From an uncultured Clostridium sp. (GTDB taxonomy: Bacteria; Bacillota; Clostridia; TANB77; CAG-508): a stretch of 64,000 nucleotides of DNA. The notes beneath the pieces were generated by a model that saw only the letters and a list, made by a program, of their open reading frames with translations, was not told where the DNA came from and did no database searches. Position numbers and translations under genes: made by a program. Location of the stretch: assembly GCA_900553755.1 (NCBI GenBank), contig USEX01000001.1, positions 29,463-93,462 of the forward strand, given 5' to 3'. Of this stretch, positions 3,146 to 59,875 are shown one piece after another (position 1 is the first letter of the stretch; every line of letters begins with the position of its first letter).

Positions 3146-3146
3146 T

Positions 3147-7189: not shown

Positions 7190-7612
7190 TTAGTCAAAAA
7201 TTATGCTTTTAAATATATCACTATTTATATCAACTATATCTTTTATATCTATTATTAAATCGTTTTGCATAATAATTTGTCCGTTATAATTGTCTATCTT
7301 TTTAACATTATTTACAATGGTTTCATATTTTCCACCGTCTTTTTTTGTATCAGGTATAAAATATGTTATTTCTACTTTAGGTCTATTTGATAGCATTTCT
7401 TGGATTACTTGAATTTTCATATCCAATATCAATTTTACTTCTTCGTCCAATTCTATTCTTTTGTCTGTAAGTCTAGCTGTTTCTTTAACTTGTCCATCAT
7501 AACCAGTTAATGCTGCAAAAGGTGCAAATTGTGCCGACCTTTGATATAAACTCATTTTGGGATGTTTAGATATTGGTCTTTGTAAATTTATTATATCATC
7601 ATAATTTCTCAT
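7190..7612 (-). CDS. YolD-like protein (partner of UmuC-like Y-family polymerases)
   Basis: It is 140 aa, and its start overlaps the stop of the polymerase gene (ATGA at 7612). The size and position match the B. subtilis yqjW-yqjX / uvrX-yolD arrangement. The motif LYQRSAQFAPFAALTGYD is present. Confidence 0.6.
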   Translation of the reverse strand: MRNYDDIINLQRPISKHPKMSLYQRSAQFAPFAALTGYDGQVKETARLTDKRIELDEEVKLILDMKIQVIQEMLSNRPKVEITYFIPDTKKDGGKYETIVNNVKKIDNYNGQIIMQNDLIIDIKDIVDINSDIFKSIIFD

Positions 7613-21167: not shown

Positions 21168-22521
21168 CTTTATTTTTCTCCTTTCTACTTTTTTCTTCTT
21201 TATTCTTCTCTTCTAAGTTTTCTTTTATCTTTGGTATTCTGTATTCAATATCTTCTATTAATCTCAACTCCTTCCTTATATTTTCAATTTTAAAATTTAA
21301 TTCAGCTATTTGATTACATATTAACTTTTGCTTTTCTGGAGTGTTTTCTAATTTTCTATATCTCCATAAACTTTCTCTCTCAGATAATATGTTATTTAGT
21401 TCTATATTTATATTTTCTTTATAACTATTCAACTCATCTTTTGTATTTAAATTATTTGCATTTAGAAATTTTGCTTCTTCAGAATATTTGTCCATTATTT
21501 TTATATCTGCTCTAATGCTAGCAGGTAATCTTTTATTTACATTTTTAGTATTAGGAAATACTTTTAAAAGAAAACAATAATGATAATATAAAGCAATGAA
21601 TCCTTTTGCTTTCTTTTTAGATTTTTTATATGTGCCTTTATACTTGTTTGATGTACCTTTTAATTTATACGCTTCTATAAAAGGTATTCTTGTATCATTT
21701 TCTTCAACTATTCTTGTCTTAATTCGTTCTACTGAATAATCTGCACCAAACGCTCTTTCGATTCTAATATTTCTATTGTAATTCTTATGTTTTACACTAA
21801 TCTTTCCGCTTCTAAATATAATTTCATAGTCCATTTTTTTCATTATTGATTTAAAATCTTCAAATGAAAAAGCTTGACCAATTGCAAAATCAATATCTCT
21901 TTTTGTAGTGTTTTTATAATTATTTTCACTTGAATATTTTTTATAAAAATTATCATAATTTATTAGACCTTTCTTACCAATATTCTTATCAATAACTTTT
22001 AAGTCATATTCTTTACAAAGATTATCTGATGTTGCTCTAATGGCAGAATATGTTTTATTATTGTTGTAATATTTCTTTCCATCTTTAAATGATACTGAAT
22101 TGATGACTATATGATTATGATAGTGGTTAGTATTTAAATGAGTTGATACAACACACTCAAATCTGTCAGCAAATAACTCATTACAAAGTTCAATTCCTAT
22201 TTTATGAGCCAACTCAGGAGTTACTTTCTCATTATTTTCAAATGACTGAATTAAATGAAAAGCTAATATTCCATCTTCTTTTTCATATATTTGCTTTGTA
22301 ATTTTCATTTGCTCATAAGCGTCCTCTGCATTGCAATTTATACCGGTAACATATAATTTCTTTTCAGTTTTATAATCAGCTTCAATATAATCTAAAACAT
22401 TATGTAGGTCTTGATAGTTTATTGCACCATAGTTCTTATTATTTGTTTTATTTTCATTACATGCATAATCTAATACATGATCAAGTCTTACCTTAATAGG
22501 TATAATTTTTGTGATAGCCAT
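21151..22521 (-). CDS. Conjugative relaxase, MobA/VirD2-type (PF03432 relaxase/mobilisation nuclease; MOBQ/MOBP-like)
   Basis: The His triad HLNTNHYHNHIVINSV is present and the N-terminal MAITKIIPIK.. is typical. The C-terminal coiled-coil tail is KE-rich. The gene is directly downstream of mobC. Confidence 0.8.
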   Translation of the reverse strand: MAITKIIPIKVRLDHVLDYACNENKTNNKNYGAINYQDLHNVLDYIEADYKTEKKLYVTGINCNAEDAYEQMKITKQIYEKEDGILAFHLIQSFENNEKVTPELAHKIGIELCNELFADRFECVVSTHLNTNHYHNHIVINSVSFKDGKKYYNNNKTYSAIRATSDNLCKEYDLKVIDKNIGKKGLINYDNFYKKYSSENNYKNTTKRDIDFAIGQAFSFEDFKSIMKKMDYEIIFRSGKISVKHKNYNRNIRIERAFGADYSVERIKTRIVEENDTRIPFIEAYKLKGTSNKYKGTYKKSKKKAKGFIALYYHYCFLLKVFPNTKNVNKRLPASIRADIKIMDKYSEEAKFLNANNLNTKDELNSYKENINIELNNILSERESLWRYRKLENTPEKQKLICNQIAELNFKIENIRKELRLIEDIEYRIPKIKENLEEKNKEEKSRKEKNKDEYIK

Positions 22522-22835
22522 TACAAATATTCCTTTTTAACTTTATTCATAAATTCACACCAATTTCTTGCTTCTTTTTCATAATAGCTTTTATCAATTT
22601 CATTCAAATAATTTGCCTTATGTGCAATTTGATTTAAGTTATTTCCTATATGAGTTAATTGAAACATTACATCATAAAATCTATCATCTGGTTTTTCTCT
22701 TATTCTTTTATTTAGTATTAGTCTTCTAATATATTCTGCTTGACTAATCTTAGCTCTAGAAACATCACTTTTTAATTTGGCATATTCTTCATCACTAAGC
22801 ATAATATCTATTCTATTATTTCTGCTCCTAGCCAT
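22521..22835 (-). CDS. mobC: MobC-like ribbon-helix-helix relaxosome accessory protein
   Basis: It is 104 aa with the N-terminal RHH-like segment RIDIMLSDEEYAKLK and the MobC motif IGNNLNQIAHKAN. It is coupled (ATGA) to the relaxase. A paralogous gene is at 63598..63903. Confidence 0.7.
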   Translation of the reverse strand: MARSRNNRIDIMLSDEEYAKLKSDVSRAKISQAEYIRRLILNKRIREKPDDRFYDVMFQLTHIGNNLNQIAHKANYLNEIDKSYYEKEARNWCEFMNKVKKEYL

Positions 22836-22851
22836 AATCTACTCCTTTCAA

Positions 22852-22910
22852 TATGGGGATTGGGGCAACGCCCCATAACTTTAATAAAAATCCCCTGATT
22901 TTTTATTAAA
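22852..22910. other. Candidate oriT: GC-rich hairpin TATGGGGattggggcaacgCCCCATA followed by an AT-rich inverted repeat TTAATAAAAATC/GATTTTTTATTAA
   Basis: These are the only GC-rich palindromes in the 200-bp region immediately upstream of mobC-relaxase. That is the typical position of oriT in MobC/MobA systems. Confidence 0.4.
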
Positions 22911-23035
22911 TCGAATTTCGTGTGAACAAATTCAATGCTTGCTAGGACATATCGAGCCAAGCTCTCTATGTCACTTTTTTTGTAAGCATTATCTTCGATT
23001 GTAATTTTATTTTGCAATAACATATACAATTTTTA

Positions 23036-23410
23036 TTACAAATCTTCTTTATATTGTTTATATAAGTTTTCCAGATTTTTAATATCTTCATTTGTAATTT
23101 TCACTTGTAAAAACCCTTCTTTACATACCTTTTTTTCTGCTTTATCAAATGTATTTAATAGTTCATTTATGAATACATCTGCATTATTATTTGGAAGGTC
23201 ATATCCTTGTGCAGTAAATCTATCTCTTCTTTTACTTATTATTTCTTTACATGAATATCTTAATTGTTTAATATCTTCATCATCAAAGTTAATTTTTTCC
23301 TCGTCAAGGTAATATTTATCAACCTTGTTAATTGCATCTGCTTTATCTTTTGCAGCCACAAATATCTCCTTTATCGATGTTGCTAACATTGTTACTTTAA
23401 ATTTTTTCAT
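23036..23410 (-). CDS. Hypothetical protein (124 aa), first gene of leading region
   Basis: ORF only. Confidence 0.4.
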   Translation of the reverse strand: MKKFKVTMLATSIKEIFVAAKDKADAINKVDKYYLDEEKINFDDEDIKQLRYSCKEIISKRRDRFTAQGYDLPNNNADVFINELLNTFDKAEKKVCKEGFLQVKITNEDIKNLENLYKQYKEDL

Positions 23411-23442
23411 TTTACTTATTCTCCTTTACATTTATAAAATTT

Positions 23443-24429
23443 TTATTCTCTCAAATGTTCTTTAGTTTTTTTAAATTTAATACTATCTTTTGTCTTTTTA
23501 AGTCCAAGCTTATAACACAAAAAGTCGTTGACATCTTTACCATAAGGTACTGGACAATCAACGACTATATATTCCTTTGGAATCACAATTTGAAATGCTT
23601 TTGTTGCATTTCTTCCTGCTAAATCCCTATCGAAATGTAATACAATATTTTTTACATTTTGGTGTTCTTTCAAATATGTTTCAATCGCAATAGGTATTTT
23701 GCTATTTTCAATACATTTTGCAGGTTGATATACTCCTGCTAAAGCTATTAAATTTTCTTTCTTATAATCAATTCCTTTATACATTAAAAGTGTAGCATAA
23801 GATAATAAATCAATAGAGCTTTCAAATACATGAATTGTATTATTCGGTACATTTGAAAGTAGTCTAAATGAATATTTTTTATCACTGCCTGTAGCATCTC
23901 TCATATATCTTGTTTGGTTTGTTGCTCTACAACCTGCATAACGAATATTATTACAATTATCATATCCAACAAATACAACATTGTTTGTATTTTCTTCCTG
24001 ATATATCAAATTTTTTTTATAACATTCTTCTATAATTGTTTCTGCAATTCCTCTGTTAATTAAGTATTCCTTTGCTATGTTAAAAGTATTAGATTTCTTT
24101 GGTACTTTTAATTCACTTTTCTTTGGTACTTTACTATCTTTACTTAATGAAAAAGGAATTGATTTTACATTACCATTGGCTAACAATTGAACAGCCTCTA
24201 TAAAAGTATAATTCTTTACTTTTATTAGATAATCAATTGCATTATTTCCACCAATTCCTTGCGAAAACCAATTCCACAAACCATTGCTAATTTTTAAACT
24301 ATCATGACTTTTTGTACAATAATTATTTCCACCTTCATGTACTAATTCATTTGGTTCATAATTTTGCAAATATGTAAGCAAATCTATCTTCTGTAATTCT
24401 TTGATTTGTTCTGGTGGAATGTATGGCAT
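23443..24429 (-). CDS. Toprim-domain (DUF3991-like) primase-like protein of conjugative elements
   Basis: Toprim acidic motifs are present: the conserved Glu in IHVFESSIDLLS and DxD in VLHFDRDLAGRNA. It is 328 aa. Confidence 0.6.
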   Translation of the reverse strand: MPYIPPEQIKELQKIDLLTYLQNYEPNELVHEGGNNYCTKSHDSLKISNGLWNWFSQGIGGNNAIDYLIKVKNYTFIEAVQLLANGNVKSIPFSLSKDSKVPKKSELKVPKKSNTFNIAKEYLINRGIAETIIEECYKKNLIYQEENTNNVVFVGYDNCNNIRYAGCRATNQTRYMRDATGSDKKYSFRLLSNVPNNTIHVFESSIDLLSYATLLMYKGIDYKKENLIALAGVYQPAKCIENSKIPIAIETYLKEHQNVKNIVLHFDRDLAGRNATKAFQIVIPKEYIVVDCPVPYGKDVNDFLCYKLGLKKTKDSIKFKKTKEHLRE

Positions 24430-24443
24430 ATTAACACCTCCAT

Positions 24444-25199
24444 CTACCTAGAATCTTTATTTTTTTGTTTTTGTTCTATTTTAAAATCTTCTTCTATGTG
24501 TTCAATGGAATTATCTACAGCATATTCCAACATTTCGTTAAAATTGCCATCACATTTTAGCCATTCGTCATAGCAGTCATTAAGTATATTAGGACATTTT
24601 AATAACGATTTGCATTCATTTATTGATAAGTCTTTTTTCTCAAATGCATATAACATTTCTTGTTTACAAACTTTCTCATAAGCTCTTTCAATAATTACTT
24701 CCGGTCTTTCTTTTTTCATTTCTTCGATGAAATCGTTATATTCATTTGTTAGCTTTTCATGAACTCTTTGCTTTAGACCATCTTCATAACTGTAGATATC
24801 TCCTCTTTGTAGTTTTACTTTATTTTTATCTTCAACATAGTTTTCTAATAGATATGATGGCGGAATGATACCATCTCGTTTTAATGCTTGTATTAAATCT
24901 GTACCTTTTTCCATATATAAATCTCTTTCTATTGTAAGACCAAATGGTAGTTTTAAATCTTGTAATTCTGACAACATAACCGTACCAAATTCTGCTAATT
25001 TATCATCTCCAAGATGACAATATCCAAACAATTCATAATCTCCATTTTTTTGTTTTGTTCCCTCTGTAATGTACCAGGTTCCTACTCCTGTTGGATTGAA
25101 AAACTTCGCAATTACTTCTGCATTTCCTCCTTTTCCATCTTGACTTCCAATAGGATATTCTTCAAATTTCTTTTCAATTTCTTCAGTAATTAATTTCAT
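24444..25199 (-). CDS. DUF2958-like conserved conjugative-element protein
   Basis: The N-terminal motif PIGSQDGKGGNAEVIAKFFNPTGVGTWYITEG...ELFGYCHLG matches my recollection of the DUF2958 family that travels with ArdC/Toprim genes. Confidence 0.45.
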   Translation of the reverse strand: MKLITEEIEKKFEEYPIGSQDGKGGNAEVIAKFFNPTGVGTWYITEGTKQKNGDYELFGYCHLGDDKLAEFGTVMLSELQDLKLPFGLTIERDLYMEKGTDLIQALKRDGIIPPSYLLENYVEDKNKVKLQRGDIYSYEDGLKQRVHEKLTNEYNDFIEEMKKERPEVIIERAYEKVCKQEMLYAFEKKDLSINECKSLLKCPNILNDCYDEWLKCDGNFNEMLEYAVDNSIEHIEEDFKIEQKQKNKDSR

Positions 25200-25218
25200 T
25201 AAATTCTCCTTTCTGACA

Positions 25219-25256
25219 TAAAAAAAGAGATATTAACTTTCTACATTAATATCTCT
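25219..25256 (-). terminator. Rho-independent terminator after DUF1810 gene
   Basis: An 11-bp stem AGAGATATTAA/TTAATATCTCT is followed on the minus strand by a T-run. Confidence 0.55.
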
Positions 25257-25331
25257 TCACAAATATCTTTTCACTATTTAATTATCATTTAATAATATTT
25301 CACTCGAAGTTTTATGCTTTATACTATTCAT

Positions 25332-25766
25332 TTATTTTTTATCAAGTTGATTACATATTCTAATTGTGTTCTCGTCTAGTTTTCCATCATAAAATTTATT
25401 TAATACTTTTTTGAAAACTTCTAATTCAGGTTTTACTATATTAAATAATGTCATAGAAGAACACAATTTCAAATCATCAGGAAATCCCATTATATTTATT
25501 ATATCATTTGATTCTAAGCTTAATAGTGCATTACACATATTAATTAGATTGTCAAATAGGTACTTATCTTCTAAATATGCTTGTGCTTCCTCCATACTTT
25601 TAATAGAATAATATTCTGCCATTTTACTATGCCCTAAACCTTTAATTTGAGGGAATATGTACCAAATCCAATGACTTTGTTTTTTTCCTAATTTTATTTC
25701 TGATAATGCAATATTATAATTTTGTTGTTGAGCTTTTATAAATCTATCTAAATTATATTTTTCCAT
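25332..25766 (-). CDS. DUF1810-family protein
   Basis: The hallmark motif SHWIWYIFPQIKGLG is present. It is 144 aa. Confidence 0.65.
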   Translation of the reverse strand: MEKYNLDRFIKAQQQNYNIALSEIKLGKKQSHWIWYIFPQIKGLGHSKMAEYYSIKSMEEAQAYLEDKYLFDNLINMCNALLSLESNDIINIMGFPDDLKLCSSMTLFNIVKPELEVFKKVLNKFYDGKLDENTIRICNQLDKK

Positions 25767-25788
25767 ATTTTAATAACCACATATTTTC

Positions 25789-26628
25789 TTAATTAAGTTT
25801 TACATTTTCATCATACTTATTCTTTTTATACATATATTTTTTGCCAAAATATTTAACACAATTAGGTATGTAATGACTTTTGTAACCTCTACATGTTTCA
25901 TTCAACAATAAACTTGTAACTTTAAAACTTCTGGATTTTTTTGTATATTCATAAGATACTTTATACTCTTCTAGAACTTTTTTAATTTCTTCTTTAGTTC
26001 CATCATATAATATTTCTTCCAGTTCATCTATATCCATTAATGATTCATTTCGCATTTCATTATAATATTCTTTAGCAGGATATTGGTCAAAATATCTTTT
26101 TACTAAATTATCGCTTTTCCAAATTTTCCAATCTGTTCTATTTTCATAATTATAATGCCATATTTCATCATCTGGATACTCTATTCCTTCAATATAATCT
26201 TCATTATTTTCTGCCCATTCTTCATATTCAGTATCCTCCAAGTACAATGTATTTTCTTGTACATTTTCTCCATCCCAAAAGAATTTAGAAAGATATATTT
26301 TACTTTCCTCACATGCATACCATGTTAATTCTTTTTTAAACATTTCAACGGCTTTTACTATTGCACAAATTGGATATAACCATTTTGTTAAAAATTTTAT
26401 TTCTATTAGTCCTTCCTTGTTTTTTTCGTAAGAAAAACCCCAACCATAATAAATACTTTCTCCATATTTTTCGTCATATTTATTTAATGATTTCACTCCA
26501 AATAGTTTATTAAATGATATATATGGCTCATCTAATTTTTCATTTTCATCTATTGGATAATAATCAATAAAATATTCGTTTAATATTTTTTCAGTACATA
26601 CAATTTTATTTACAACATAATTTGCCAT
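25789..26628 (-). CDS. Hypothetical Trp/Tyr/Glu-rich protein (279 aa)
   Basis: ORF only. The acidic, aromatic-rich composition is the kind seen in some DNA-mimic anti-restriction proteins, but I recognise no motif. Confidence 0.4.
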   Translation of the reverse strand: MANYVVNKIVCTEKILNEYFIDYYPIDENEKLDEPYISFNKLFGVKSLNKYDEKYGESIYYGWGFSYEKNKEGLIEIKFLTKWLYPICAIVKAVEMFKKELTWYACEESKIYLSKFFWDGENVQENTLYLEDTEYEEWAENNEDYIEGIEYPDDEIWHYNYENRTDWKIWKSDNLVKRYFDQYPAKEYYNEMRNESLMDIDELEEILYDGTKEEIKKVLEEYKVSYEYTKKSRSFKVTSLLLNETCRGYKSHYIPNCVKYFGKKYMYKKNKYDENVKLN

Positions 26629-26740
26629 ATAATCGCCTCCAAAATATGCTACTTCAATATTATTAATTAATGCTTGTCTAATGTCATAAAAAGCAAGTGA
26701 TTTACTGCCTAATTACTTTTCCTGTTTAGTATAATTCACG

Positions 26741-27181
26741 TTATAGTTGATCATTTACAATTTTCTCATTTTTCTTATTCCATCTGGTAGCACAATTTAA
26801 ACAGATAAAATCTCTTACATCATCTCCATATGTTGCCCATGGATTGCAAAATAGCCCCATATTTTCAAATTTTTTCTTTTCTTTCTCTTTTTGTCTATTA
26901 CTACCATTATACAATCTATAAAATAAATCTCCAGCATACGTTCTTACAACATATTTTCCACTACAATTAGGGCATATCATATCTTTTGAGTTTTTTTCTA
27001 TATGTCCACTTACACCTACAACCCAATTCAATATAAAACTATATTTTTTGGAATTTTTTATATCAAAATTTTCAAACTCATTTTCTAGTTTTTTAATTAA
27101 TTCTCCAAATGTAGTAGTTTCTTTTTCCATTTTAAATATTTTTTCTATTTCTTCGTTTGTAAGAATTATATTATATTTCAA
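26741..27181 (-). CDS. Hypothetical zinc-ribbon protein (CPNC...CLNC)
   Basis: It has two CxxC pairs, CPNCSGKY and CLNCATRW. Confidence 0.4.
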   Translation of the reverse strand: MKYNIILTNEEIEKIFKMEKETTTFGELIKKLENEFENFDIKNSKKYSFILNWVVGVSGHIEKNSKDMICPNCSGKYVVRTYAGDLFYRLYNGSNRQKEKEKKKFENMGLFCNPWATYGDDVRDFICLNCATRWNKKNEKIVNDQL

Positions 27182-27287
27182 CTAAAGTGACCTCCATTCA
27201 AATTACTATTCTCTTGCAACTATAATACTCTACAAGAGCAGATATTTTTTAATAAACTATTTGCCTTTAAAATTGTAATTTGTATTG

Positions 27288-27671
27288 TTATTTAGCCCAA
27301 GCACTCAAAATAACTTTATCAAATAATTTAAATTCACCACTTATTACTTCGTTGATTTGATTATCACTATTTTCTTTTCGTTGAATAAAATATTCATATT
27401 CAACAGTATATCCAATTCCATACATTTTTTCTTTTGGTAACTCCCTACCTGTACTTACATAAAAATCAGTAACTCTTGTCTTAATTAATGGTTCTACTCC
27501 TAAATGGTTATTAAATCTAATTAGTTCTACTGTAACCAACAAAGCATAAGCAACAATAATTGCAACAAAAACAATTCCAACAATTTTAAGTTTTTTCATT
27601 AATTCCCACCTCTCTAATAACAAATTACTATTAATCGAGATGATTATATCATATATTTTATTAAAAAACAT
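27288..27671 (-). CDS. Hypothetical single-TM protein (127 aa)
   Basis: ORF with a TM segment LKIVGIVFVAIIVAYALLVTV. Confidence 0.35.
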   Translation of the reverse strand: MFFNKIYDIIISINSNLLLERWELMKKLKIVGIVFVAIIVAYALLVTVELIRFNNHLGVEPLIKTRVTDFYVSTGRELPKEKMYGIGYTVEYEYFIQRKENSDNQINEVISGEFKLFDKVILSAWAK

Positions 27672-27708
27672 AAGAAGATACTAAATTTCTTTAATATCTT
27701 CCAATTTT

Positions 27709-28044
27709 TTAAATATTAAGCATGTCCATTTCTTCCAAAAATATGTATGCCTCTTTTGCTCCTAATTTGTATGCCTCAATTAGTTCCAGTGTATCCATTA
27801 AACTGAATATAGTTACTAACTCATTAAATGCTTTCATTTCTTCTTTTTCAAAATTCATAGGTTTGTTATTTTCAACAAATTCTCTTATTTGAGGATATTT
27901 TTCATATATTTTTTTACTTTCTTCTTGTAATTCTATATAATCCTCTCTATTAATAAGATTCTTTCTTTTGTGTTCTTCAAACGAATCTGTAAAGGCATCA
28001 TGATTTTGATTTATAAAACTATCTAAGACTTTCTTCATTATCAT
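27709..28044 (-). CDS. Hypothetical protein (111 aa)
   Basis: ORF, overlapping/coupled with the upstream 119-aa ORF. Confidence 0.35.
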   Translation of the reverse strand: MIMKKVLDSFINQNHDAFTDSFEEHKRKNLINREDYIELQEESKKIYEKYPQIREFVENNKPMNFEKEEMKAFNELVTIFSLMDTLELIEAYKLGAKEAYIFLEEMDMLNI

Positions 28045-28378
28045 ATACCTCCATTTGCTTTTCTATTTCTTTTTTTGCATTTAAACCGTCCATAAATCCT
28101 AATTTGTAAAAGTTCACATTCCAAAATTCTGACATCTCTAAAACATTTTCAAATAAGAAATTTTCAATTTTCTCCTCTAATTCTTCATGATATTCCTTAG
28201 GTACATAATTCAATAATTCTTTCATTCTTTTCTCTGTATCATCTATTAATCCTTGATACTCTTTTGAATTGGTAGTAACTTTGCTTGAAAATTCCTCTCT
28301 TCTTGCCTCACATAATTCATCTAAAATAGAACAACTAAAAAAATCATCAATATTTTTCATGGCAACCTCCTTCAACAA
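28019..28378 (-). CDS. Hypothetical protein (119 aa)
   Basis: ORF 40 nt downstream of the giant gene. Confidence 0.35.
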   Translation of the reverse strand: MLKEVAMKNIDDFFSCSILDELCEARREEFSSKVTTNSKEYQGLIDDTEKRMKELLNYVPKEYHEELEEKIENFLFENVLEMSEFWNVNFYKLGFMDGLNAKKEIEKQMEVYDNEESLR

Positions 28379-28418
28379 TAATGATATTATATAATCAAAA
28401 TTTTAACAAATGTGCAAA

Positions 28419-31400
28419 TTATCTTTCTCTATTATCTTTGTAGTTTTGACTTTTTTCATCGTCAATATCATTATCTAAAAGTTCATGTTCCTTTTCGTTA
28501 AGATTTAACTTAATATTTAGTTCATCAAGTCTCTTTTGCTTTTCTTGTAACTCTTGCTCTTGTGGAAATTCTTTTTGCACTTCTTTTTCTGCATTTGCTA
28601 GTTGTACTTTTTCATTTTCAAGTTGAGCTTTAGTAGGCTCAATTTGTTCTGATATTTTTTCTAGACAATTATCAATTCTTTGTATATTACCATGAACATC
28701 ATTTCCTAATTCAATATAATAGCTATATTCATTTTTTATCTTTAACTTGAATAATTTACTAAATCTATCATATTCTAATTCTAAATTAAATCCTCGATAG
28801 TTTCCTATATATTCTAAATCTGCATTTTTCTTATTATTACAAGCATCTAGTATTGCTTGTCCTGCTTTTGCTTTTTCATTAAATGTAACATTATTTATTA
28901 CCATAGGACTAAATTCATTTTCATTTATTTTTGTATAATCTTTTAAATGTTTTGTATCATTTTCAAGTGCTACAATTTTATCTTCTAATCTTTTGATTTC
29001 TTTTGGATAATATTTTGCAATTCTATCTTGTAAATCATATTTTTCTCCCATAAAACTTTGCTTTAAAAGTTTTAACTTGGCAACTGCAGTATCTAATTCT
29101 GTTTTCTCCAATATATCTGGATTGCCTGTTGCTAGTGCTTTTATTTCTCCATAAGATAATGCTTTCTCATCAACATCTTCAGCAACTCTAACTGGAGTTT
29201 TAGAAGTCATAATTTGCGAAATGAATTTTTGTTTATTTTCCACCAACTGATAAAGGTATGCATCAAAAGTTCCCTCTGTAACATACGTATATACATCAAT
29301 TTCTTCATTTCTATTTCCTTGTCTAATTCCTCTACCATTTCTTTGAGTTAAATCTGCTGGTCTCCATGGACAATCAAGATGATGTAATGCTATAAGCCTG
29401 TCTTGTACATTTGTTCCTGCTCCCATTTTACTTGTACTACCTATAAGAACTCTTACATCACCATTCCTTACCTTAGAGAATAATTCTTTTTTCTTAACTT
29501 CATTATCAGCCTCATGAATAAACGCTACTTGTTCTCTTGGAATTCCTTTTAATACAAGTTTTCTTCTTATATCGTTATAAACATCTGTAAACTTGTAATT
29601 ACCATTTTCATCTAATAATTCTTCATTTTGTTTTGGTGTTGATAAATCACAAAATACTAATTGAGTTGACTTGTTTTCTTTTGTGTTATTCCAAATATCA
29701 TAAACATTATTTATACATGTATTTACTTTACTATATGGATCATCCTCTAACATATCATTCATTAGTCTTTGATCCAATGCTAGTTTTCTCCCCTCATTAG
29801 TTATTTTTAACATATTATCTTTTGCTGCATCAACCATACCATTTCTTATTCTTTCAGCTCTATTTCCAAGTTCTTCAACCATATCCTTTTGTATTGCACT
29901 AGGTTTAGTAACAATATTTTTAAAGTTAGCCTTTGGAACAGGAAGATTTAAAGTCTCGGCTGTTTGTATATCTGCTATTTCTTTGAATAAATTCATAAGC
30001 TCTGGTAAATTATGAAATTTTGCGAATCTAGTTTTTGCTCTGTAACCTGTACCCTCTGGAGACAATTCAATTGCTGTAACTGTCTCTCCAAATGTACTAG
30101 CCCAGGAATCAAAAAAATCCAGTCCCATTTTTTCGAGTCCATTGTATTGCAAATACCTTTGCATTGTATAAAGCTCTACCATGGAATTGCTGACAGGTGT
30201 TCCTGTTGCAAAAACAGTTCCCTTTCCTCCTGTTAACTCATCAAGGTATCTACATTTCATGTATAAATCCGAACTTTTCTGAGCTTCTGTTTGTGCTATT
30301 CCTCCAACATTTCTCATTTTCGTATATAAAAAAAGGTTTTTAAAATTATGTGCTTCATCTACAAATAACTTATCAACTCCTAATTGTTCAAAAGTTACAA
30401 CATCATCTTTGCCATCTTGATTATTTAATTTTTCAAGTTTGCTTTCTAATCCTTTTCTTGTTTTTTCTAGTTGCTTAATTGTAAAATTTTCTCCACGATT
30501 TCTTTTAACTTCGTCAATACCATTTAATACGTCATTGATTTGTTTTTCTAACATTTCTTTTTGCCTTTCGACAGACATAGGTATTTTTTCGAATTGTGAA
30601 TGTCCAATGACAACTGCATCGTAATCTCCTGTTGCTATACGACTACAGAATTTTTTTCTATTAGCAGTTTGAAAATCTTTTTTAGTAGCGACAAGTATGT
30701 TTGCAGACGGATATAATTGAAGAAACTCTGAAGCAAATTGTTCAATTATGTGATTAGGAACTACAAATAAGGATTTGTTACATAAACCAAGTCTCTTGCT
30801 TTCCATAGCTGCTGCAACCATCTCAAATGTTTTTCCAGCTCCAACTTCATGTGCAAGTAATGTGTTACCTCCATATAAAATATGTGCTATGGCATTTACT
30901 TGATGTTTTCTTAATTTTATTTCTGGATTCATTCCAACAAAATTCAAATTACTACCATCATACTCTCTTGGTCTAATACTATTAAACTTTTCATTATAAA
31001 TCTTGGTGAGTTGTTCCCTTCTATTTGTGTCTTTCCATACCCATTCTTCAAACGCTGCTTTAATTTGTTCTTGCTTTGATTGAGCAATAGCTGTTTCTTT
31101 TTTGTTTAATACTCTTGTTTTTCTTCCTTCTTCGTCAATTATGGTATCAAAAATCTTTACATCCTTTAAATTTAAAGTAGTTTCAATTATTTTGTACGCA
31201 TTAATTCTATCAGTACCATAAGTTTTATATGCCTTTACATTACTTCTATCTCGACTTTTGTTTTCTATGTACCATTCTGAATTGTACTTTGAATATCTTA
31301 CTTTGATATCCCAGGTAGCATATACTGGTGTATCTAATAATTCAAACATAAATTGTCTTATGATTTCCTCAGGTATCCATGTAGCACCTAGCTTTATTCC

Positions 31401-34400
31401 TATTTCATTTGCTTGAATGTCTTTTGGCATAACCTTTTTCAAACTATCTACATTGATTTGAAATTCTGGATGTGTCAAAGCAAATTCTTCAGCTATTTTC
31501 AATTTTTCTCTTACATTTCCTGATAAATATTCATCGGAAGTATAGAATGTACCTCTATGAAGCGGGTCTTCATAAATTACTCCTTCAAGTTCTTTTATTA
31601 TTGTTTCTTTATCTTTATTAGTTAATTCAGACATATAATCTAAATCAACTCTTGCTTTTTCTGACATTGAAACAATTAATGCTTCATCGCTTGTCGAAAC
31701 CTCTTTAATTTCCTTATACGGCTTAATTGTTCTTTTTGTAAACATATCTGCTTTTCGTACAAATTTTCCTTCGCCATCTAACACTTCTAAAGAACATAAA
31801 AGAAAATAACTACTATCCTCAGAAAAGGCTAAATTATTTCCTCTACTATTAATTAGTCCGTATTGTTTTACAAAATTATCATACAATCTATTTAATCTTA
31901 ATTGCTCTTGTTTTATATTTTCTTCAGGATAATCCTCTGTCTGCATATCTATTAGTGTTCTAACGCAATCTCGAAGTTCTATCATTCCTTTTATTCTATT
32001 TACAGAAGTAACAGGGAGTTCTTGTAAATACATTTTACTATTTTCTCTAAAATATATATTTCCATCTTTTATTGTATAAGAAAAATTTCTAACACTTGGA
32101 TCAGCATTAATAAATTTTTCATCTTCTTCTATATCATCTATTTCATATTCACTAATTTCAGCATGAATATTAGTTATTGCATAGTCTAATTGATTTTCAA
32201 GAGGTATATCATTATTGGGAATACATGTTGAATCTAATCCATATTGTGTAGTTTTCATTTCCATTGTTCCTAAAACCATTTCAGGGTTATCTACAAAGTA
32301 CTTATTCATTTTTATTCCATTATCATTAGTATCAAGATAAACCCAATCTGGTTCATTATTTGTCATATTTTCTCTTTTTTGTAGAAATAAAATGTCAGAT
32401 GTTACCTCCGTACCTGCATTCTTAGAAAATGTGTTGTTGGGTAATCTAATTGCACCAAGCAAATCAGCTCTTTGTGCTATATATCTTCTTACAGTGGGAT
32501 TTTCCTTATCCATTGTTCCTTTTGAAGTTATAAATGCAATTATTCCTCCAGGTCTTACCTTATCTAAAGTTTTTCCAAAGAAATAATCATGAATTAAAAA
32601 ATTGTTTTTGTCGTATTTTTTGTCATGTATTTTAAAATCTCCGAACGGAACATTGCCAACAGCAACATCAAAGAAACTATCTGGCAAATCAACTTTTTCA
32701 TAACCATTAATAGTAATATTTGATTTTTGATATAATTGTCTAGCAATTCTTCCTGATATAGGATCTACTTCTATTCCATACAATTTACTTTCATTCATAG
32801 AATCAGGAATACTACCTAAGAAGTTTCCTGTACCACAACTAGGCTCTAGTATATTAGCATTCTTTACTCCCATATTTTCAAGTGCTTTATATATAGATTT
32901 AATTACTATTGGTGGTGTATAAAAAGCTGTCAATGTTGACGCTCTCGCATTTTTATATTCTTCTTCAGAAAGTAAATCCTTTAAAACTTTATATTCATTT
33001 GACCAGTTTGAGTCTTTATCATCAAATGCTTTTGCAAGTCCACCCCATCCAACATATTTAGATAAAATTTCTTGTTCTTCTTTAGTTGCTAGTCTATTTT
33101 CATCTTCGCATTTTTTTAGAACTTTTATAGCCTCAATATTATTTGAAAATCTTTCTCTTGGTGTACCCACTCCTAAATTATCATCAGTTATTTTGTAATT
33201 TATTCTGTCTATATTAGATATTTCTGGTGAACTATTATAAGTTTCTCTTTTATTTTCTTTTGTATCAAATTTTGGCTCTATAATATTTGATTTTTTTATT
33301 TCATCAATTATTTCATTAAAATCTTGTTGCAATTCCTCATTATTGTCTTCTGCACTTTTAACTTGTTCTAGATAATCTATAAGTTCTTCTTTTCCATCTA
33401 AATCTTCTTTTACTTGTTCAATTGTATTTTCTTCTCTATCAAAGATATCGTACTTATTTTCTAAATCAAGTAGTTTTTCATCTAAAGATTTATTTTCAAT
33501 AGTTGTCTCTTTTTCTTCTGCCTTTTCTCTTGTCTTATATAAGTGTGAGTTCGAAGGATTTTCTTTTATTATTTTTTCAAATTCTTCAATTGACATTTCT
33601 CTGCCTAGTAATGGAAATTTCAAATCATAAAGTTGAACATTCATTACACCAATATTAGATATTTCATAGCTATCACTGCCAATATAAACTATATCTCCTA
33701 GATGGTAATCTAAAACTTTTTCAACTGGTATTTCTTTAATACTTTCTATTTTTTCTTTAGCATCATTATCTAACCATGCAAGGTATTCATCAAATTCTTT
33801 AGAATTTAAGTATCTGTCTGCTAAAATTAACTCTTTTAATCTTTTTTCTACATAGTTCCATGTCAATAATTTTTCTGGTCTATCATCTTTAAATCCTTTA
33901 TATAATAAAATTCCCTTACTATCATGTTGTTGTCCAAAATCTGCGTAACTATATGCTGCACTTGAGCCACCAATACCATATTCATGTTTAAGAAAATCAA
34001 TATTTTCTTTTGCTGACATGCTTGAAGTCATTTGTCTAAATATTCTAAATTTTCCCTTTGCAAATCCACTACCATTTTGCAAAGTTCTGTCTATCATTTC
34101 TTGTGTGAATTCAAAAATAGCAGGTATATCATTATTTGATATATCTGCTATTTTTTGCTTTTGTTCTTCTTCTGATATTAAATTTAATTGTAGATTAGTT
34201 CCTGAATTGTTATCTCCTCTGCCATATTCCTTAAATTGTTCATTATCTGAACCCACTTCATTTGGTCTTGTGCTTTCATTTCTTCTGTTATATTCGCTTT
34301 TTTCATTAAATCTTTCATTATTGTTTCTATTCGTTCTGTCGCCGATTTTTGAATTTCTACTAGATGACTTGTAAGTTCGTTTTTCATTAGTAAAGCCATA

Positions 34401-35369
34401 TATAAACCTTTTTTCTGTTCCTTCAGATAATTTAACCTCATGTGATAATATTTGCCCTGAACTTGATTCTCGTTTGTTTCCTTTATCATAAGATTCGGTA
34501 TCTGATAATCTCCTTCTTGTCTGTATGTTAATTCCATAATCAACACTCCTTTCGTTTTCTTTGATTATATTATTATCTAATTTTTCTTTTTCTGCAAATG
34601 TATGATTTTTAATTTTTTCTTGAGTTTGCAATTTTTTAATTGTTTGATGTATTTCTCTTATATTATTTTCTGCAATATCACTTGTTGCTGCTCCTAATCT
34701 TGAAATTGTTTCTAAAGTGTTGAAATCTACTATACCTCTAAAATCATCAATTGAGAAATAATCAAATGGATTTATACCACATCTTTGCATAGTCATATAT
34801 GCTACACTATTTGATAATAATGTTCTAAATCTTGTTTCAATATTAAAGTCATCTAAATCTTCTAAAAAACTATTATCTTTTGCAACTATTAAGTCGCTTA
34901 AATAATCTTGAATATTATCTTCAACAGAATTATAAGAAGCGGATATTATTGCTTCTGCTAAATTTGATTTATTTTCTAATTCTCCAAATCTAGCTTCTAA
35001 TGAATCAATTAAGTCATTATTATATTTATCTTCGATTTTCCATAAGTTTAACTTCGTCCCAGTATAATTGTGTGTATCTGAAACATCAAAAACATGTCTC
35101 AGTCTAGTGTTACCATTTTCTTCACTAAGTAATGCTATTCCTTTTGCACCTTTATTAACCCATCTTTTAACTTTATTATTCCAGGTTTCAATATCAGCAC
35201 AAGCAGTAGCTTCTGGTTTTTGCACAAAAATTAATACTTGCTCTGCAAAATTGTACTTATAATTATTTGAAGCCGTTATCAAAAAAGAAGCCCAATTTTC
35301 TGGACTTCTGCTTATCTCTGAAAGTGTTTCATTATATAAATTTACAATGTTTTGTAATTTCGAAGGCAT
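28419..35369 (-). CDS. Giant (2316 aa) multidomain protein: ArdC_N-like ssDNA-binding domain + N6-adenine DNA methyltransferase + SF2 (SNF2/DEAH) helicase; phage P1 DarB-like antirestriction methylase-helicase
   Basis: The N-terminus VLIFVQKPEATACADIETWNNKVKRWVNKGAKGIALL is the ArdC N-domain pattern. MTase motif I is ILEPSCGTGNFLG and motif IV is DVAVGNVPFGDF. Helicase motif I is LLAHEVGAGKTFEM, motif II is LFVDEAHNFKN and motif VI is LTQRNGRGIRQGN. The real start is probably the second ATG (MPSKLQ) at 35369, with RBS AGGAGG 7 nt upstream. Confidence 0.8.
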   Translation of the reverse strand: MPSKLQNIVNLYNETLSEISRSPENWASFLITASNNYKYNFAEQVLIFVQKPEATACADIETWNNKVKRWVNKGAKGIALLSEENGNTRLRHVFDVSDTHNYTGTKLNLWKIEDKYNNDLIDSLEARFGELENKSNLAEAIISASYNSVEDNIQDYLSDLIVAKDNSFLEDLDDFNIETRFRTLLSNSVAYMTMQRCGINPFDYFSIDDFRGIVDFNTLETISRLGAATSDIAENNIREIHQTIKKLQTQEKIKNHTFAEKEKLDNNIIKENERSVDYGINIQTRRRLSDTESYDKGNKRESSSGQILSHEVKLSEGTEKRFIYGFTNEKRTYKSSSRNSKIGDRTNRNNNERFNEKSEYNRRNESTRPNEVGSDNEQFKEYGRGDNNSGTNLQLNLISEEEQKQKIADISNNDIPAIFEFTQEMIDRTLQNGSGFAKGKFRIFRQMTSSMSAKENIDFLKHEYGIGGSSAAYSYADFGQQHDSKGILLYKGFKDDRPEKLLTWNYVEKRLKELILADRYLNSKEFDEYLAWLDNDAKEKIESIKEIPVEKVLDYHLGDIVYIGSDSYEISNIGVMNVQLYDLKFPLLGREMSIEEFEKIIKENPSNSHLYKTREKAEEKETTIENKSLDEKLLDLENKYDIFDREENTIEQVKEDLDGKEELIDYLEQVKSAEDNNEELQQDFNEIIDEIKKSNIIEPKFDTKENKRETYNSSPEISNIDRINYKITDDNLGVGTPRERFSNNIEAIKVLKKCEDENRLATKEEQEILSKYVGWGGLAKAFDDKDSNWSNEYKVLKDLLSEEEYKNARASTLTAFYTPPIVIKSIYKALENMGVKNANILEPSCGTGNFLGSIPDSMNESKLYGIEVDPISGRIARQLYQKSNITINGYEKVDLPDSFFDVAVGNVPFGDFKIHDKKYDKNNFLIHDYFFGKTLDKVRPGGIIAFITSKGTMDKENPTVRRYIAQRADLLGAIRLPNNTFSKNAGTEVTSDILFLQKRENMTNNEPDWVYLDTNDNGIKMNKYFVDNPEMVLGTMEMKTTQYGLDSTCIPNNDIPLENQLDYAITNIHAEISEYEIDDIEEDEKFINADPSVRNFSYTIKDGNIYFRENSKMYLQELPVTSVNRIKGMIELRDCVRTLIDMQTEDYPEENIKQEQLRLNRLYDNFVKQYGLINSRGNNLAFSEDSSYFLLCSLEVLDGEGKFVRKADMFTKRTIKPYKEIKEVSTSDEALIVSMSEKARVDLDYMSELTNKDKETIIKELEGVIYEDPLHRGTFYTSDEYLSGNVREKLKIAEEFALTHPEFQINVDSLKKVMPKDIQANEIGIKLGATWIPEEIIRQFMFELLDTPVYATWDIKVRYSKYNSEWYIENKSRDRSNVKAYKTYGTDRINAYKIIETTLNLKDVKIFDTIIDEEGRKTRVLNKKETAIAQSKQEQIKAAFEEWVWKDTNRREQLTKIYNEKFNSIRPREYDGSNLNFVGMNPEIKLRKHQVNAIAHILYGGNTLLAHEVGAGKTFEMVAAAMESKRLGLCNKSLFVVPNHIIEQFASEFLQLYPSANILVATKKDFQTANRKKFCSRIATGDYDAVVIGHSQFEKIPMSVERQKEMLEKQINDVLNGIDEVKRNRGENFTIKQLEKTRKGLESKLEKLNNQDGKDDVVTFEQLGVDKLFVDEAHNFKNLFLYTKMRNVGGIAQTEAQKSSDLYMKCRYLDELTGGKGTVFATGTPVSNSMVELYTMQRYLQYNGLEKMGLDFFDSWASTFGETVTAIELSPEGTGYRAKTRFAKFHNLPELMNLFKEIADIQTAETLNLPVPKANFKNIVTKPSAIQKDMVEELGNRAERIRNGMVDAAKDNMLKITNEGRKLALDQRLMNDMLEDDPYSKVNTCINNVYDIWNNTKENKSTQLVFCDLSTPKQNEELLDENGNYKFTDVYNDIRRKLVLKGIPREQVAFIHEADNEVKKKELFSKVRNGDVRVLIGSTSKMGAGTNVQDRLIALHHLDCPWRPADLTQRNGRGIRQGNRNEEIDVYTYVTEGTFDAYLYQLVENKQKFISQIMTSKTPVRVAEDVDEKALSYGEIKALATGNPDILEKTELDTAVAKLKLLKQSFMGEKYDLQDRIAKYYPKEIKRLEDKIVALENDTKHLKDYTKINENEFSPMVINNVTFNEKAKAGQAILDACNNKKNADLEYIGNYRGFNLELEYDRFSKLFKLKIKNEYSYYIELGNDVHGNIQRIDNCLEKISEQIEPTKAQLENEKVQLANAEKEVQKEFPQEQELQEKQKRLDELNIKLNLNEKEHELLDNDIDDEKSQNYKDNRER

Positions 35370-35371
35370 TA

Positions 35372-35626
35372 TCATTCCTCCTTTCCTTTATTTCCTGAAA
35401 AAAATTCTATAATCCCATTTTTTATATTTCTTCTTTTATTTGTTTTATAGTTTTCTTCAATAACAACCTTAAAATCCATTATTAAACTTTTCTCAAAAGG
35501 GGAAAAATCTCCAATGGAGTCTAAATCTTGCCATTTTATATTAATCAATTTTTCAGTTGTATTGATGTTATATTTAAATAATTTTTCTAAAGTTTTTGTT
35601 ATATCATTCATCTTATAAACTGCCAT
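35372..35626 (-). CDS. Hypothetical protein (84 aa), translationally coupled upstream of the giant gene
   Basis: Its stop overlaps the giant-gene start. RBS AAGGAGG is upstream. Confidence 0.4.
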   Translation of the reverse strand: MAVYKMNDITKTLEKLFKYNINTTEKLINIKWQDLDSIGDFSPFEKSLIMDFKVVIEENYKTNKRRNIKNGIIEFFSGNKGKEE

Positions 35627-35675: not shown

Positions 35676-38600
35676 TTAATTTTTAAATTTTTTTAATCCC
35701 AAGAAAACTAAAACTGCAAGCAATAAGCTTGATATAATTAAAACCTTAATCCAAACTCCAATATTACTATCATCTCCAGTTTTTGGTGTTTCAATTTTTT
35801 CGTTTTCAAATTCAAAACTGTAAATACAATTTTCGTCTTCACTAATTAAGTTGTCATTAATATATACACCTTTGTCATTAATATCAACTTTTACAACTTG
35901 TTCGGATAAAGAGTATCCTGATGGAGCTTTTATCTCTTTAATGTAATATGTACCATATTTTAATTCTTCAAATAAAGCTGTTCCATCTTCTTTATTAGAT
36001 TTTACTTCTTTTATTAGCATTGTACATTCTGGATCTTCATAAATAGCAAATATAAATTTGTCTTTAATAGTTTCTTTAGTTTCAGAATCTATTTTAACTA
36101 TTTTAATGTTTTTTAATATTGGCATATCTTTCATTTCTATTTTTTGAGTTTCTTTTTCAGTTGTAACTATAAATTTTATTTCTTCCGTAATTTCATAACC
36201 ATAAGGAGCTGTTGTCTCTCTTAAAATATAAGTTTTACCTTCTTCTAATCCTTTTACTTGATGTGGTTCTTTAGTAGAAATCCACTTATCTATTATATTT
36301 CCATCTTCATCAATTACCTCTAATTCAGCACCCTCAAGCTCATTTCCATTTGTTAAATCGGTTTTAGTAATTTCTACTAATTTATCAATCATAATTATTT
36401 TTTGATTATTTTTGTCTGTTGTAACTTTAAATTCTATATCAGATGCTTTTACATAGTTTCCTACTGCTAATTCTTCATGTAATTTGTAGGTTTTATTTTC
36501 TTCTAATCCTGTGACTTTATGAGGTTCTTTTCCAGAAATCCATTCTTCAATTAAATTTCCGTCTTCATCTAATACTTGTAATTTTGCCCCCTCAATTTCT
36601 ATACCAGAAATATCTTCTTTTGAAATTTCTACTATTTTATCTATCATTGTTACCTTCTGTATCTCTTTTGTATTTTCTATTGTAAATTTTACGTCTGAAG
36701 ATATCACATAATTCTTTGGTGCTATTTCTTCTTTTAGTATATATTCTTTTCCTATTACAAGACCTTCAATTTTATGTGTATTTTCTGATGAAGTCCAAGT
36801 ATCTATAACATTATTGTCACTATCTAATATTGTAAGCTTAGCTCCTACAAGTTCTCCATTTCCTGTGATATCAGTCTTAGAAAATTCTACAATAGTAGTA
36901 TCATTAGAAATATTTAAATCCTCAGTATATACTTTTGTAGTTAGGTCTTTTTGCTCGAATATTATTTCATATTTTTTATCATTTAACACAAGACCATCTA
37001 AAGTCTTTACTTCTACAATCTCATATTTTCCCATTGGGAGATTAGTAATTGTTAATTTTCCATCTTTTGTTAGTTTGTATTTATTTATTTCTTGACCTTT
37101 ATTATAGATTATACTGCCATCTGCTTTATCTAAAATGTCTTCTTTAGATAATAGTTTAAATTCGATACCAGATAAGTCTGATATATCAATTAAAGAAGTA
37201 TCTGCATCTTCTCTTAATGCAATAGTTTTATTTAGTTTTATTGTTCCCGTTGGCTGTTTATTTGCTATTACAACTTCTTTTATAAAATCTCCATCTGTAT
37301 CAGTGTCGTAATCCTTTACATTTTTTATATCAAATATTACTGCACTATCTAATTGCAAAAAACCATCTGGAACTTTTATTTCTTTTATTTCATAACTACC
37401 AACAGGTAATTTTAAAGGTGTTGTAACTTCTGCACAATTATCATTTTTGCTATTATACGAATTAGTAGGAACTACAATATTGTCGGCATTAGTTGTAAAA
37501 GATGTATATGTTGTATTTCCAACTTTTTGAGATATAGTTTCACCCTTTTTAAATAATATCTTTTTTGTTGCTCTATCATATATATCCTTAGTAGCTTTTA
37601 TTTCAAAAGTTGTTGAATTTAATGTTACATTTTTTTCAGTATTTTTGTCTTTTTTCACAAGTTTAATATATGTTTCTAATTGTTCATTGTTTACTACTAA
37701 ATGCTTTGTTTTCTTAGCAATTTCGTTTATTTCTGTTTCATCATCTGTAATGCTGAATGTAAAATCAACTGCTGATTCATAATCTGTTGGTGTTTTTGTT
37801 TCTTTTACAACAAATTTACCATAAGGCAACTTATTTTGAGTATAGGCGTTTCCATCACTATCAGTTTTAATTACTTCGTATGTTGGTGCTATTGCTTGAG
37901 CTTCTGTGACTCTCTTAATATCAACTCCTACTTTGTTTCCATATTCATCAATTCCATTCCATACTTCAGCATAAGTATAGCCTTGTTGATATGCTTTCTC
38001 TACTGCTGAGTTTAATTTAATTGTAAATTCTGCTCCTTCTAGTCCAGGAGTTTCTCCTGAATTTTCTTTTATACCAGATTTAAAAATGTGAACTCCCATT
38101 TCTTTGACTTTTTCTAAACTTGTTATAGTATTGTAAATTACTTTTGTATATTGGTCTTTATATGTTAAATTAACCTCATATTCTTTTGAATCTAGCATAT
38201 ATCCTAAAGGTGCTGTTTCCTCTTTAACCATATATTTTCCTAATGGTAAGTTTGTTATATCTTCAGTTGTTCCTTTTTCATTTATGGTTCTAGTTGCAAC
38301 TAAATCTCCAGCTGAAAAGAATTTTTTAGTTTTGGCTTTATTATATATATCTTCTTTTGCATATATTTTATATACTGCTCCATTAAATGAAGCATCTCCT
38401 TGTGGTATAGAACCTGTTTTTGAATCCTTTTTTACAATAGTTATTGTTGCTGTAGGTTCCTCATCAACAATGTCTTTTACATCTAAATATACAATCTTTG
38501 TTGTTTGGTCTTTATATTTTAAATTTGCATCGTATTCTTTTTCATTTAATAGATATCCTTCTGGTGCACTTGTTTCTTTTACATAGTAATGTCCTAAATG

Positions 38601-39931: not shown

Positions 39932-40002
39932 TTTTTACCTCCATCTTGAAACAAAAAAAGAACAAGCATTTCACTTGTTCTCAAAGTCTCATATATATTA
40001 TT

Positions 40003-57511: not shown

Positions 57512-57606
57512 AATTTGCCCCCTAAATTATATTATTTTATTACTATATTTATACTTTTTTCAGTTTTTCATTATTATATACTGCTTATTTGTCCATTTTT
57601 AATCAT

Positions 57607-58811: not shown

Positions 58812-58822
58812 AAAACTTTCTC

Positions 58823-59824: not shown

Positions 59825-59875
59825 ATAATATTCCTCCTCTAAAGAATATTATATCATTTTATGTAAATTAGTTAA

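Follow-up and report, generated by a model that had tools for sequence, protein, structure and literature searches.

The stretch of DNA analysed here (64 kb, in the following the window) comes from an uncultured Clostridium sp. (contig USEX01000001.1), and its positions 23036-35626 carry a run of genes that adjoins an origin of transfer (oriT) on the side away from the relaxase gene. We consider it rather probable that this run is the oriT-proximal flank of a conjugative element that is integrated in the chromosome and belongs to the Tn1549 superfamily, and that it consists of an establishment backbone with an embedded hotspot for ordinary cargo. An earlier note on this DNA had described the run as a leading-region anti-defence island. 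Its location, its probable leading polarity and the presence of one DarB-like giant protein agree with part of that description, whereas we find no support for new anti-defence genes forming a dense island or for several hallmark functions.

The window has a GC content of about 27% and essentially every real gene lies on its minus strand. The minus-strand genes are ordered as ParA, ParB, an open reading frame (ORF) of 236 amino acids, an adhesin of 1432 amino acids with SpaA repeats, the region 23036-35626, and then a NikA/MobC-like protein, a PF03432 relaxase, DUF3801, a VirD4 coupling protein, a pilin-like protein, a VirB6-like protein, PrgI and VirB4; a sortase and a CHAP hydrolase close this array of transfer genes. 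Since Rho, a release factor and two type I restriction–modification (R-M) loci flank the array, the conjugative element is regarded as chromosomally integrated. Neither a tRNA nor an element integrase was found within the window, so the ends of the element are left undefined. A megablast search of PLSDB with 18-36 kb of the window gave no match, and the closest plasmid-borne relaxases, among them that of Tn1549 on pMG2200, do not exceed 37% identity. With the Tn1549 family (MOBP7) the element shares an oriT that has the core TAGCAAGCA, the adjacent inverted repeat and the motif GGGG-N-CCCC-AAN-CCCC and is followed by genes for a MobC/NikA accessory protein and a PF03432 relaxase. Also shared are VirD4 and VirB4, polyvalent or methylase-helicase proteins in variable regions, and cargo beyond the oriT gap, away from the relaxase. 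It differs in that all its genes are co-directional, the gene of a putative Toprim primase adjoins oriT on the upstream side, neither topoisomerase III nor an integrase is seen in the window and the host lineage has 27% GC. As the relaxase is only about 36% identical to that of Tn1549, and over the N-terminal 280 residues only, membership is assigned at the level of the superfamily.

The gap of 200 bp at 22836-23035 is strongly folded as single-stranded DNA when compared with shuffled sequence (z = -5.1) and, judged from its sequence, is a real oriT. After the inverted repeat (22913-22933) the plus strand reads AATGCTTG|CTAGGAC, with a predicted nick between 22941 and 22942. In 57 of 60 distinct upstream sequences the core, which is GTCCTAGCAAGCA on the coding strand, is accompanied by a perfect inverted repeat of 6-7 bp at a distance of 1-3 bases, and a third conserved element, GGGG-N-CCCC-AAT-CCCC, is found on the coding strand nearer the NikA-like gene (again 57/60). 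The arms of the repeat vary by lineage yet stay complementary, as in GAATTT(G)/(C)AAATTC, TGCATTT/AAATGCA and GAATATA/TATATTC. This layout recurs in Tn1549, in the intergenic gap that precedes mobC, with the arms GGGAGTG/CACTCCC; there the hairpin and the adjacent core span about 28 nt, which fits a minimal oriT that is reportedly 28 bp long. A blastn search of PLSDB with the oriT core returned chance matches only, and a full-text literature search for the core sequence found only unrelated oligonucleotide papers. RP4 is nicked within ATCCTG|C, 8 nt 3' of an inverted repeat; the nicked strand is the complement of the relaxase mRNA, and in this IncP system the relaxase gene is the last to reach the recipient. 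The plus strand of the window, with its inverted repeat, 8 nt and TGCTTG|C, resembles the RP4 arrangement, which suggests a nick at 22941|22942 on the plus strand. By this analogy the region 23036-35626 would be the leading side, with the plus strand as template for its genes, and would probably enter the recipient first. The position of the run next to oriT and opposite to the relaxase, as claimed earlier, was confirmed in any case by the coordinates of the oriT core (22852-22948) and of the NikA/relaxase pair (21151-22835).

Backbone and accessory genes were separated by two comparisons, one with BLASTP and one with iterated profiles (jackhmmer), of 86 loci, 80 of them retrieved via the Toprim protein and six via the exact 279-residue protein p279. 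The backbone comprises, in this order, the adhesin, p84, the giant, the pair of p113-like and p111-like proteins, DUF2958 and Toprim, followed by oriT. The Toprim protein is found at the same position in nearly all related loci compared (retrieved with Toprim as the query), has more than 7792 homologues and shows partial matches to dnaG and phage primase models, which makes it a candidate DnaG-type primase. Relatives of p84 (71-99 amino acids) occur in 26 loci and, as far as they are labelled in the synteny map, immediately precede the giant; p113-like proteins are present in 51 loci and p111-like proteins in 54. ORFs similar to DUF2958 (111-130 amino acids) are located just upstream of Toprim in 43 loci, so that the DUF2958 part of the window protein belongs to the backbone. 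In many relatives the p113 and p111 halves are one protein of 199-220 amino acids (e.g. L014:9112-9729), and thus the window carries a split version of a tandem DUF6664-like protein. The profile of p113 weakly matches the p111 half and iterated profiles reveal a distant paralogy of the two that was undetected by BLASTP. The assignment of p111 to DUF6664 is borderline (Pfam 26.8 bits at a cut-off of 27; the local Pfam copy gave no family for p111), and its AlphaFold2 model (pLDDT 83) is all-helical and had no fold match. The first leading-side ORF, p124, had no match in Pfam, PHROGs, PADLOC or PDB; its relatives of 144-149 amino acids in five other loci stand mostly upstream of Toprim, not downstream. 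The remaining genes, encoding p146, p279, the DUF1810 protein and the protein of a variable slot, were found only in the six near-identical element copies L001-L006.

The giant is composed of an N-terminal domain of about 130 residues, a low-complexity disordered linker, a methylase, an SNF2 helicase and a coiled-coil tail. The methylase (residues ~810-1005) is of the Eco57I-like N6-adenine type with an NVPFG motif (PADLOC MTase_II, 1e-11), and the helicase (~1486-2060) has matches to SNF2-rel_dom, ResIII and Helicase_C. Residues 726-2266 share 34-40% identity, over ~1500 residues, with many phage proteins annotated as ‘DarB-like antirestriction’, and P1 DarB itself can be aligned with residues 799-1812 at 26% identity (E 9e-20, tblastn). 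By homology residues 726-2266 are a DarB-like methylase-helicase dyad of the polyvalent-protein type, a dyad described by Iyer et al. (2017). Polyvalent methylase-helicase proteins have already been reported in variable regions of Tn1549-family elements, and a DarB family is among those enriched in plasmid leading regions (Samuel et al. 2024). The giant is the only gene of the region with a homology-based link to anti-defence, and it may protect the element from restriction. As in P1 DarB, a single polypeptide of more than 2000 amino acids combines an N6-adenine methylase with an SNF2 helicase behind it, but the giant is encoded by a conjugative element, is not virion-packaged, has an additional N-terminal WH_1 domain, disordered linker and coiled-coil tail, and has only a predicted role in restriction protection.

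Methylase and helicase of the giant were thus correctly recognised in the earlier note, but the ArdC_N domain named there was not detected. The N-terminal 130 residues had no ArdC_N match in the local Pfam copy at a listing threshold of E ≤ 5, under which the HMMER filters nevertheless drop most matches above ~0.1, and a family profile of 14 sequences had no match among PDB sequences. A newer Pfam release labels the N-terminus WH_1. In the comparison with P1 DarB and the dyad of polyvalent proteins, ArdC_N and a metallopeptidase domain were both undetected in the giant. By eye, in our own reading, the motif W...R.V.KG.KGI of the N-terminus resembles ArdC_N. A role of the giant as a defence system was rejected, as the matches to DISARM DrmD and to PLD-helicase are confined to the generic helicase C-domain and score much lower than the family cut-offs.

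The genes between the giant and the NikA-like gene differ widely among relatives of the element. For 67 clusters taken from this position a Pfam census yielded ABC transporters, helix-turn-helix (HTH) regulators, CAAX proteases and alpha/beta hydrolases, as well as the choloylglycine (bile-salt) hydrolase family, Tag glycosylase, PLD, a beta-lactamase fold, a ZIP transporter and MerR; of the 56 families matched, the top 25 by frequency included no ArdA, anti-CRISPR, SSB, PsiB or other recognised anti-defence family. Variability is also seen in the slot between p111 and p146 (27182-27708), where elements that are 95-100% identical and come from different metagenomes (L001-L006, L092-L101) contain seven alternative cassettes. 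These encode (1) a membrane protein of 103 amino acids, (2) a protein of 122 amino acids, (3) a protein of 229 amino acids with a hydrolase and DUF3781, (4) a protein of 587 amino acids, (5) a Tag glycosylase, (6) DUF3592 with a protein of 192 amino acids, or (7) an HTH regulator with DUF5301 and a cation-efflux pump. The vanB operon of Tn1549 is located upstream of the mobC gap, also on the side away from the relaxase. Because of these varied gene sets, the slot cassettes and the position of vanB, we regard the leading flank as a cargo hotspot. In the window the slot gene, p146, p279 and DUF1810 form an accretion block (25332-27671) that is bounded by two terminator-like hairpins, and the genes of this block are more likely to be host-benefit or self-protection cargo than anti-defence genes.

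The inventory of the region comprises 11 credible ORFs (Table 1) instead of the about 14 genes counted earlier. They indeed form a same-strand run on the minus strand between the NikA/MobC-relaxase pair and the SpaA adhesin, but co-orientation is not a special trait of the region and has no discriminating value, since the whole window is co-oriented. An ORF of 73 amino acids at 22808-23029 was rejected: it has a TTG start, no ribosome-binding site (RBS) and lies across the conserved oriT core. The lengths given earlier for the small ORFs hold in part, the likely starts of two of them being internal ATGs with good RBSs, which shortens the proteins from 119 to 113 and from 127 (as read from the upstream ATG of the slot protein) to 103 amino acids; gene callers on related contigs also give the 113- and 103-residue versions. 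From two supposed CxxC zinc ribbons only one remains, a four-cysteine ribbon in the 146-residue protein, the ORF of 84 amino acids being devoid of cysteine. The family of this p146 is rare (20 representatives among 1.84 billion proteins) and has no relative in PDB. The Pfam assignments DUF3991 + Toprim_2, DUF2958 + DUF3848 and DUF1810 were reproduced. Their interpretation as anti-defence hallmarks was not, since no such link was found for the DUF1810, DUF2958 and Toprim proteins: the literature found on anti-defence connects none of DUF1810, DUF2958, DUF3848, DUF3991 and DUF6664 with it, and the first four are absent from the supplements of Samuel et al. (2024). The structural match of the DUF1810 protein, Rv1873, is a Mycobacterium tuberculosis protein of unknown function. 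Searches of NCBIfam, PHROGs, PADLOC and PDB with the small ORFs gave no match beyond sub-threshold partial ones, and with no defence or anti-defence model or fold matched the view of these ORFs as prime candidates for new anti-defence proteins is not supported.

Table 1. Features of the region 23036-35626, its oriT and the adjoining genes (positions are those of the window)
Feature	Position	Strand	Remarks
NikA/MobC-relaxase pair	21151-22835	-	
oriT core	22852-22948	+ (predicted T-strand)	GC hairpin 22852-22877, inverted repeat, then AATGCTTG and CTAGGAC
oriT inverted repeat GAATTT/AAATTC	22913-22918 and 22928-22933	+	
p124	23036-23410	-	first leading-side ORF; good RBS
DUF3991 + Toprim_2 protein	23443-24429	-	Pfam 3e-12 and 3.4e-11
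DUF2958 (N-terminal) + DUF3848 (C-terminal) protein	24444-25199	-	Pfam 3.3e-15 and 7e-22
Terminator-like hairpin downstream of DUF1810	25225-25257	-	12-bp AT-rich stem, then coding-strand T-run
DUF1810 protein, Rv1873-like	25332-25766	-	Pfam 3.3e-54; PDB 2JEK (Rv1873) 1e-30
p279	25789-26628	-	Api92/DUF1281-like ferredoxin-like core (~residues 1-190) and lineage-specific tail
p146	26741-27181	-	single 4-Cys zinc ribbon (CPNC...CLNC)
Variable cargo slot, 103-residue protein with N-terminal membrane anchor	27288-27599	-	RBS and start read directly
Terminator-like hairpin downstream of p111	27674-27701	-	followed by T-run; z ~ -2.5 on both strands
p111, DUF6664-like acidic four-helix protein	27709-28044	-	second half of split tandem pair
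p113, DUF6664-like	28019-28360	-	first half of tandem pair
Giant, 2318 amino acids	28419-35375	-	
Intragenic hairpin in giant ORF	34113-34155		18/19 bp; ~1221 nt from ORF start; flanking A-tract and T-tract
p84, small, basic	35372-35626	-	strong RBS; stop overlaps giant start (35372-35375); no cysteine
SpaA adhesin	35676-39974	-	

The protein p279 is acidic and rich in aromatic residues, as had been noticed earlier (isoelectric point 4.86, W+Y+F 18.6%). The suggestion derived from this, that it is a DNA mimic, did not hold. Its best fold match is Api92 (PDB 2ijr), from which it differs by an identity of only ~5% and a Pfam score below the cut-off, and stand-alone relatives are encoded in ordinary chromosomal neighbourhoods. 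Other chromosomal relatives (442-467 amino acids) combine the p279 core with a WapI-like immunity domain in one protein. A mimic of the ArdA/Ocr type was rejected on the basis of the fold, which is not that of ArdA or Ocr, and of this chromosomal distribution, and the fusions disfavour it as well; they suggest that p279 is an immunity-type binding protein. It has also been observed that WapI-fused relatives (P0133, P0128; L089-L091) adjoin variable defence genes, namely type I R-M, GmrSD and an AAA_21/RloB pair. An explanation built on p279 would be that the lineage-specific block, and chiefly this protein, is cargo for interbacterial competition, i.e. an orphan immunity-type protein against a contact-dependent toxin that spreads as a benefit to the host. 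The WapI fusions, the stand-alone relatives in ordinary neighbourhoods, the high content of W, Y and E and the generally host-beneficial nature of cargo at this position are in line with such a role. The window contains no nearby toxin gene, however, the domain fusion is indirect evidence, and the best fold match, Api92, has an unknown function while DUF1281 neighbours ArdC in a proteobacterial plasmid region; altogether we rate this explanation as quite unlikely.

The earlier note had also proposed to look for Frpo-type hairpins, i.e. promoters functional on single-stranded DNA, in three intergenic gaps. These gaps contain either short AT-rich stems with coding-strand T-runs or nothing significant (z 0.8 to -2.7). 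The hairpin downstream of DUF1810, with the sequence AAGAGATATTAA...TTAATATCTCTTTTTTTAT, reaches z = -2.7 on the plus and -1.9 on the minus strand, and the gap 26629-26740 has no significant structure. The hairpins look like intrinsic terminators, not Frpo promoters, and the latter interpretation was rejected because the stems are too short and are followed by coding-strand T-runs. A different structure is found within the giant ORF. Outside the oriT gap the hairpin at 34113 is the single near-perfect inverted repeat of at least 13 nt, six others being 76-87% complementary, and it is the only intragenic one among five hairpins with at least 13 pairs in the window. At the matching position of related giant ORFs hairpins of unrelated sequence occur, accounting for 8 of the 10 hairpins found in 24 such ORFs; in L016, L036, L061, L070 and L084 they lie at about nt 1211-1269. 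As possible functions of this intragenic hairpin, internal attenuation or single-strand signalling, for example as a priming site, come into consideration.

It can now be asked whether the whole run is nevertheless a leading-region anti-defence island in which the small unknown proteins act as anti-restriction, anti-CRISPR or SOS-type inhibitors that are expressed early from the incoming single strand. Anti-defence genes are over-represented in leading regions (Samuel et al. 2024), and with the islands of that study the region has in common the position relative to oriT and relaxase, a gene orientation that fits the transferred strand (T-strand) as template, and a gene of the DarB family; several of the small proteins are acidic, too. 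The differences are that matches to ArdA, KlcA, anti-CRISPR, PsiB, SSB and toxin-antitoxin proteins are missing in the region, that no Frpo-like promoters were found and that ordinary cargo makes up the variable content. Searches with Pfam, NCBIfam, PHROGs and PADLOC did not reveal a clustering of known anti-defence genes (anti-restriction, anti-CRISPR, SOS inhibitors, SSB, methylases) as expected of the islands of Samuel et al. (2024), since only the giant qualifies, and the same study reports no enrichment for some relaxase types (MOBT, MOBP2 and MOBC). Considering in addition that no small ORF matches a model or fold related to anti-defence or defence, that p146, p279 and DUF1810 are element-specific and sit in a hotspot that holds ordinary cargo elsewhere, that relatives of p279 are chromosomal and that co-orientation extends over the whole window, we judge such an island to be unlikely.

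Several points weigh against our reading of the region as a leading flank with establishment backbone and cargo hotspot. The strand that is nicked has been deduced from the RP4 layout, and upstream of nikA there is a second conserved element on the coding strand, GGGG-N-CCCC-AATCCCC, which looks like a hairpin with a conserved 3' tail. If this element were the nick site, the minus strand would be cut, the relaxase and secretion genes would be transferred first and 23036-35626, as the lagging end, would enter last. The conservation of the element throughout the family fits such a polarity, as do the G.T pairs (C.A on the plus strand) that the inner stem of the oriT has on the coding strand in several lineages and that hint at a structure of importance on the other strand or in RNA. 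The spacing between GGGG-N-CCCC-AATCCCC and the inverted repeat is variable, though, with ~40 extra nt in the window, while the core AGCAAGCA keeps within 1-3 nt of the inverted repeat (48/48 sequences). On the other strand the inverted repeat is followed by 8 nt and TG|C as in RP4, in which transfer ends with the relaxase gene, and the span of about 28 nt in the Tn1549 gap fits the minimal oriT mentioned above. We therefore hold the reversed polarity to be very improbable. As GGGG can pair with either CCCC run, the element ATGGGG-N-CCCC-AAT-CCCCAT (22852-22877), conserved in 57 loci through to Tn1549, can adopt two alternative hairpins, and it could be a site for an accessory protein, a switch or a second nick candidate.

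Two further objections concern the proteins. Api92/DUF1281 proteins occur beside ArdC in at least one proteobacterial plasmid region with genes of integrative and conjugative elements, and in view of this adjacency p279 may have a conjugation-linked role. Furthermore, the small backbone proteins p84, p113/p111 and DUF2958 are conserved next to the giant without having an assigned function, and new anti-defence domains may be present even where known ones are lacking. One may speculate that p84, the acidic DUF6664 pair p113/p111 and DUF2958 constitute an unrecognised establishment or anti-restriction module of Gram-positive conjugative elements, with the hairpin of the giant timing expression, a proposal that we regard as doubtful.

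If the flank is the leading side, as we prefer to read it, transfer could proceed as follows. The relaxase would nick the plus strand at TGCTTG|C (22941|22942) and the nicked strand would enter the recipient with its 5' end first. Complementary-strand synthesis would then be initiated by the putative primase, and the giant, acting either as a co-transferred protein or following early expression, would move along the new duplex by means of its SNF2 motor and methylate adenines. By this methylation the element might be shielded from restriction in cis, in the manner of P1 DarB. The accretion block would contribute host-benefit or self-protection cargo, for which p279 as a presumed immunity-type binding protein is one example.

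Some features of the surroundings and of the relatives shall be mentioned. The type I R-M loci on both sides of the element extend over 1976-5714 and 54473-63484; in one of them a tyrosine recombinase gene (58823-59824) adjoins hsdS (57627-58811), a layout that corresponds to a phase-variable specificity shufflon. At the far end of the transfer gene array a translesion polymerase gene of the ImpB/MucB/UmuC type is located (7612-9102), and umuC-like genes are described as often flanking anti-defence islands (Samuel et al. 2024). In L010, L041, L045, L074 and other related loci the ORFs of the coupling protein and the giant appear fragmented under the standard bacterial code with their order kept, which suggests either that TGA is a sense codon in the hosts or that many of the copies have become pseudogenes.

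The element is widespread in low-GC gut Firmicutes: its exact proteins are present in 79-112 assembly blocks from gut metagenomes, and more than 260 relatives of its family were found among species-representative genomes. Splitting the region into backbone and cargo, together with the order of entry, narrows the search for establishment factors of Gram-positive elements from eleven genes to four or five, and the conserved small backbone proteins together with the intragenic hairpin of the giant are the parts that merit experiment. That the leading side doubles as a cargo hotspot, with genes for efflux, the bile-salt hydrolase family and hydrolases in these elements and vanB in Tn1549, bears on the spread of adaptive and resistance genes in the gut.

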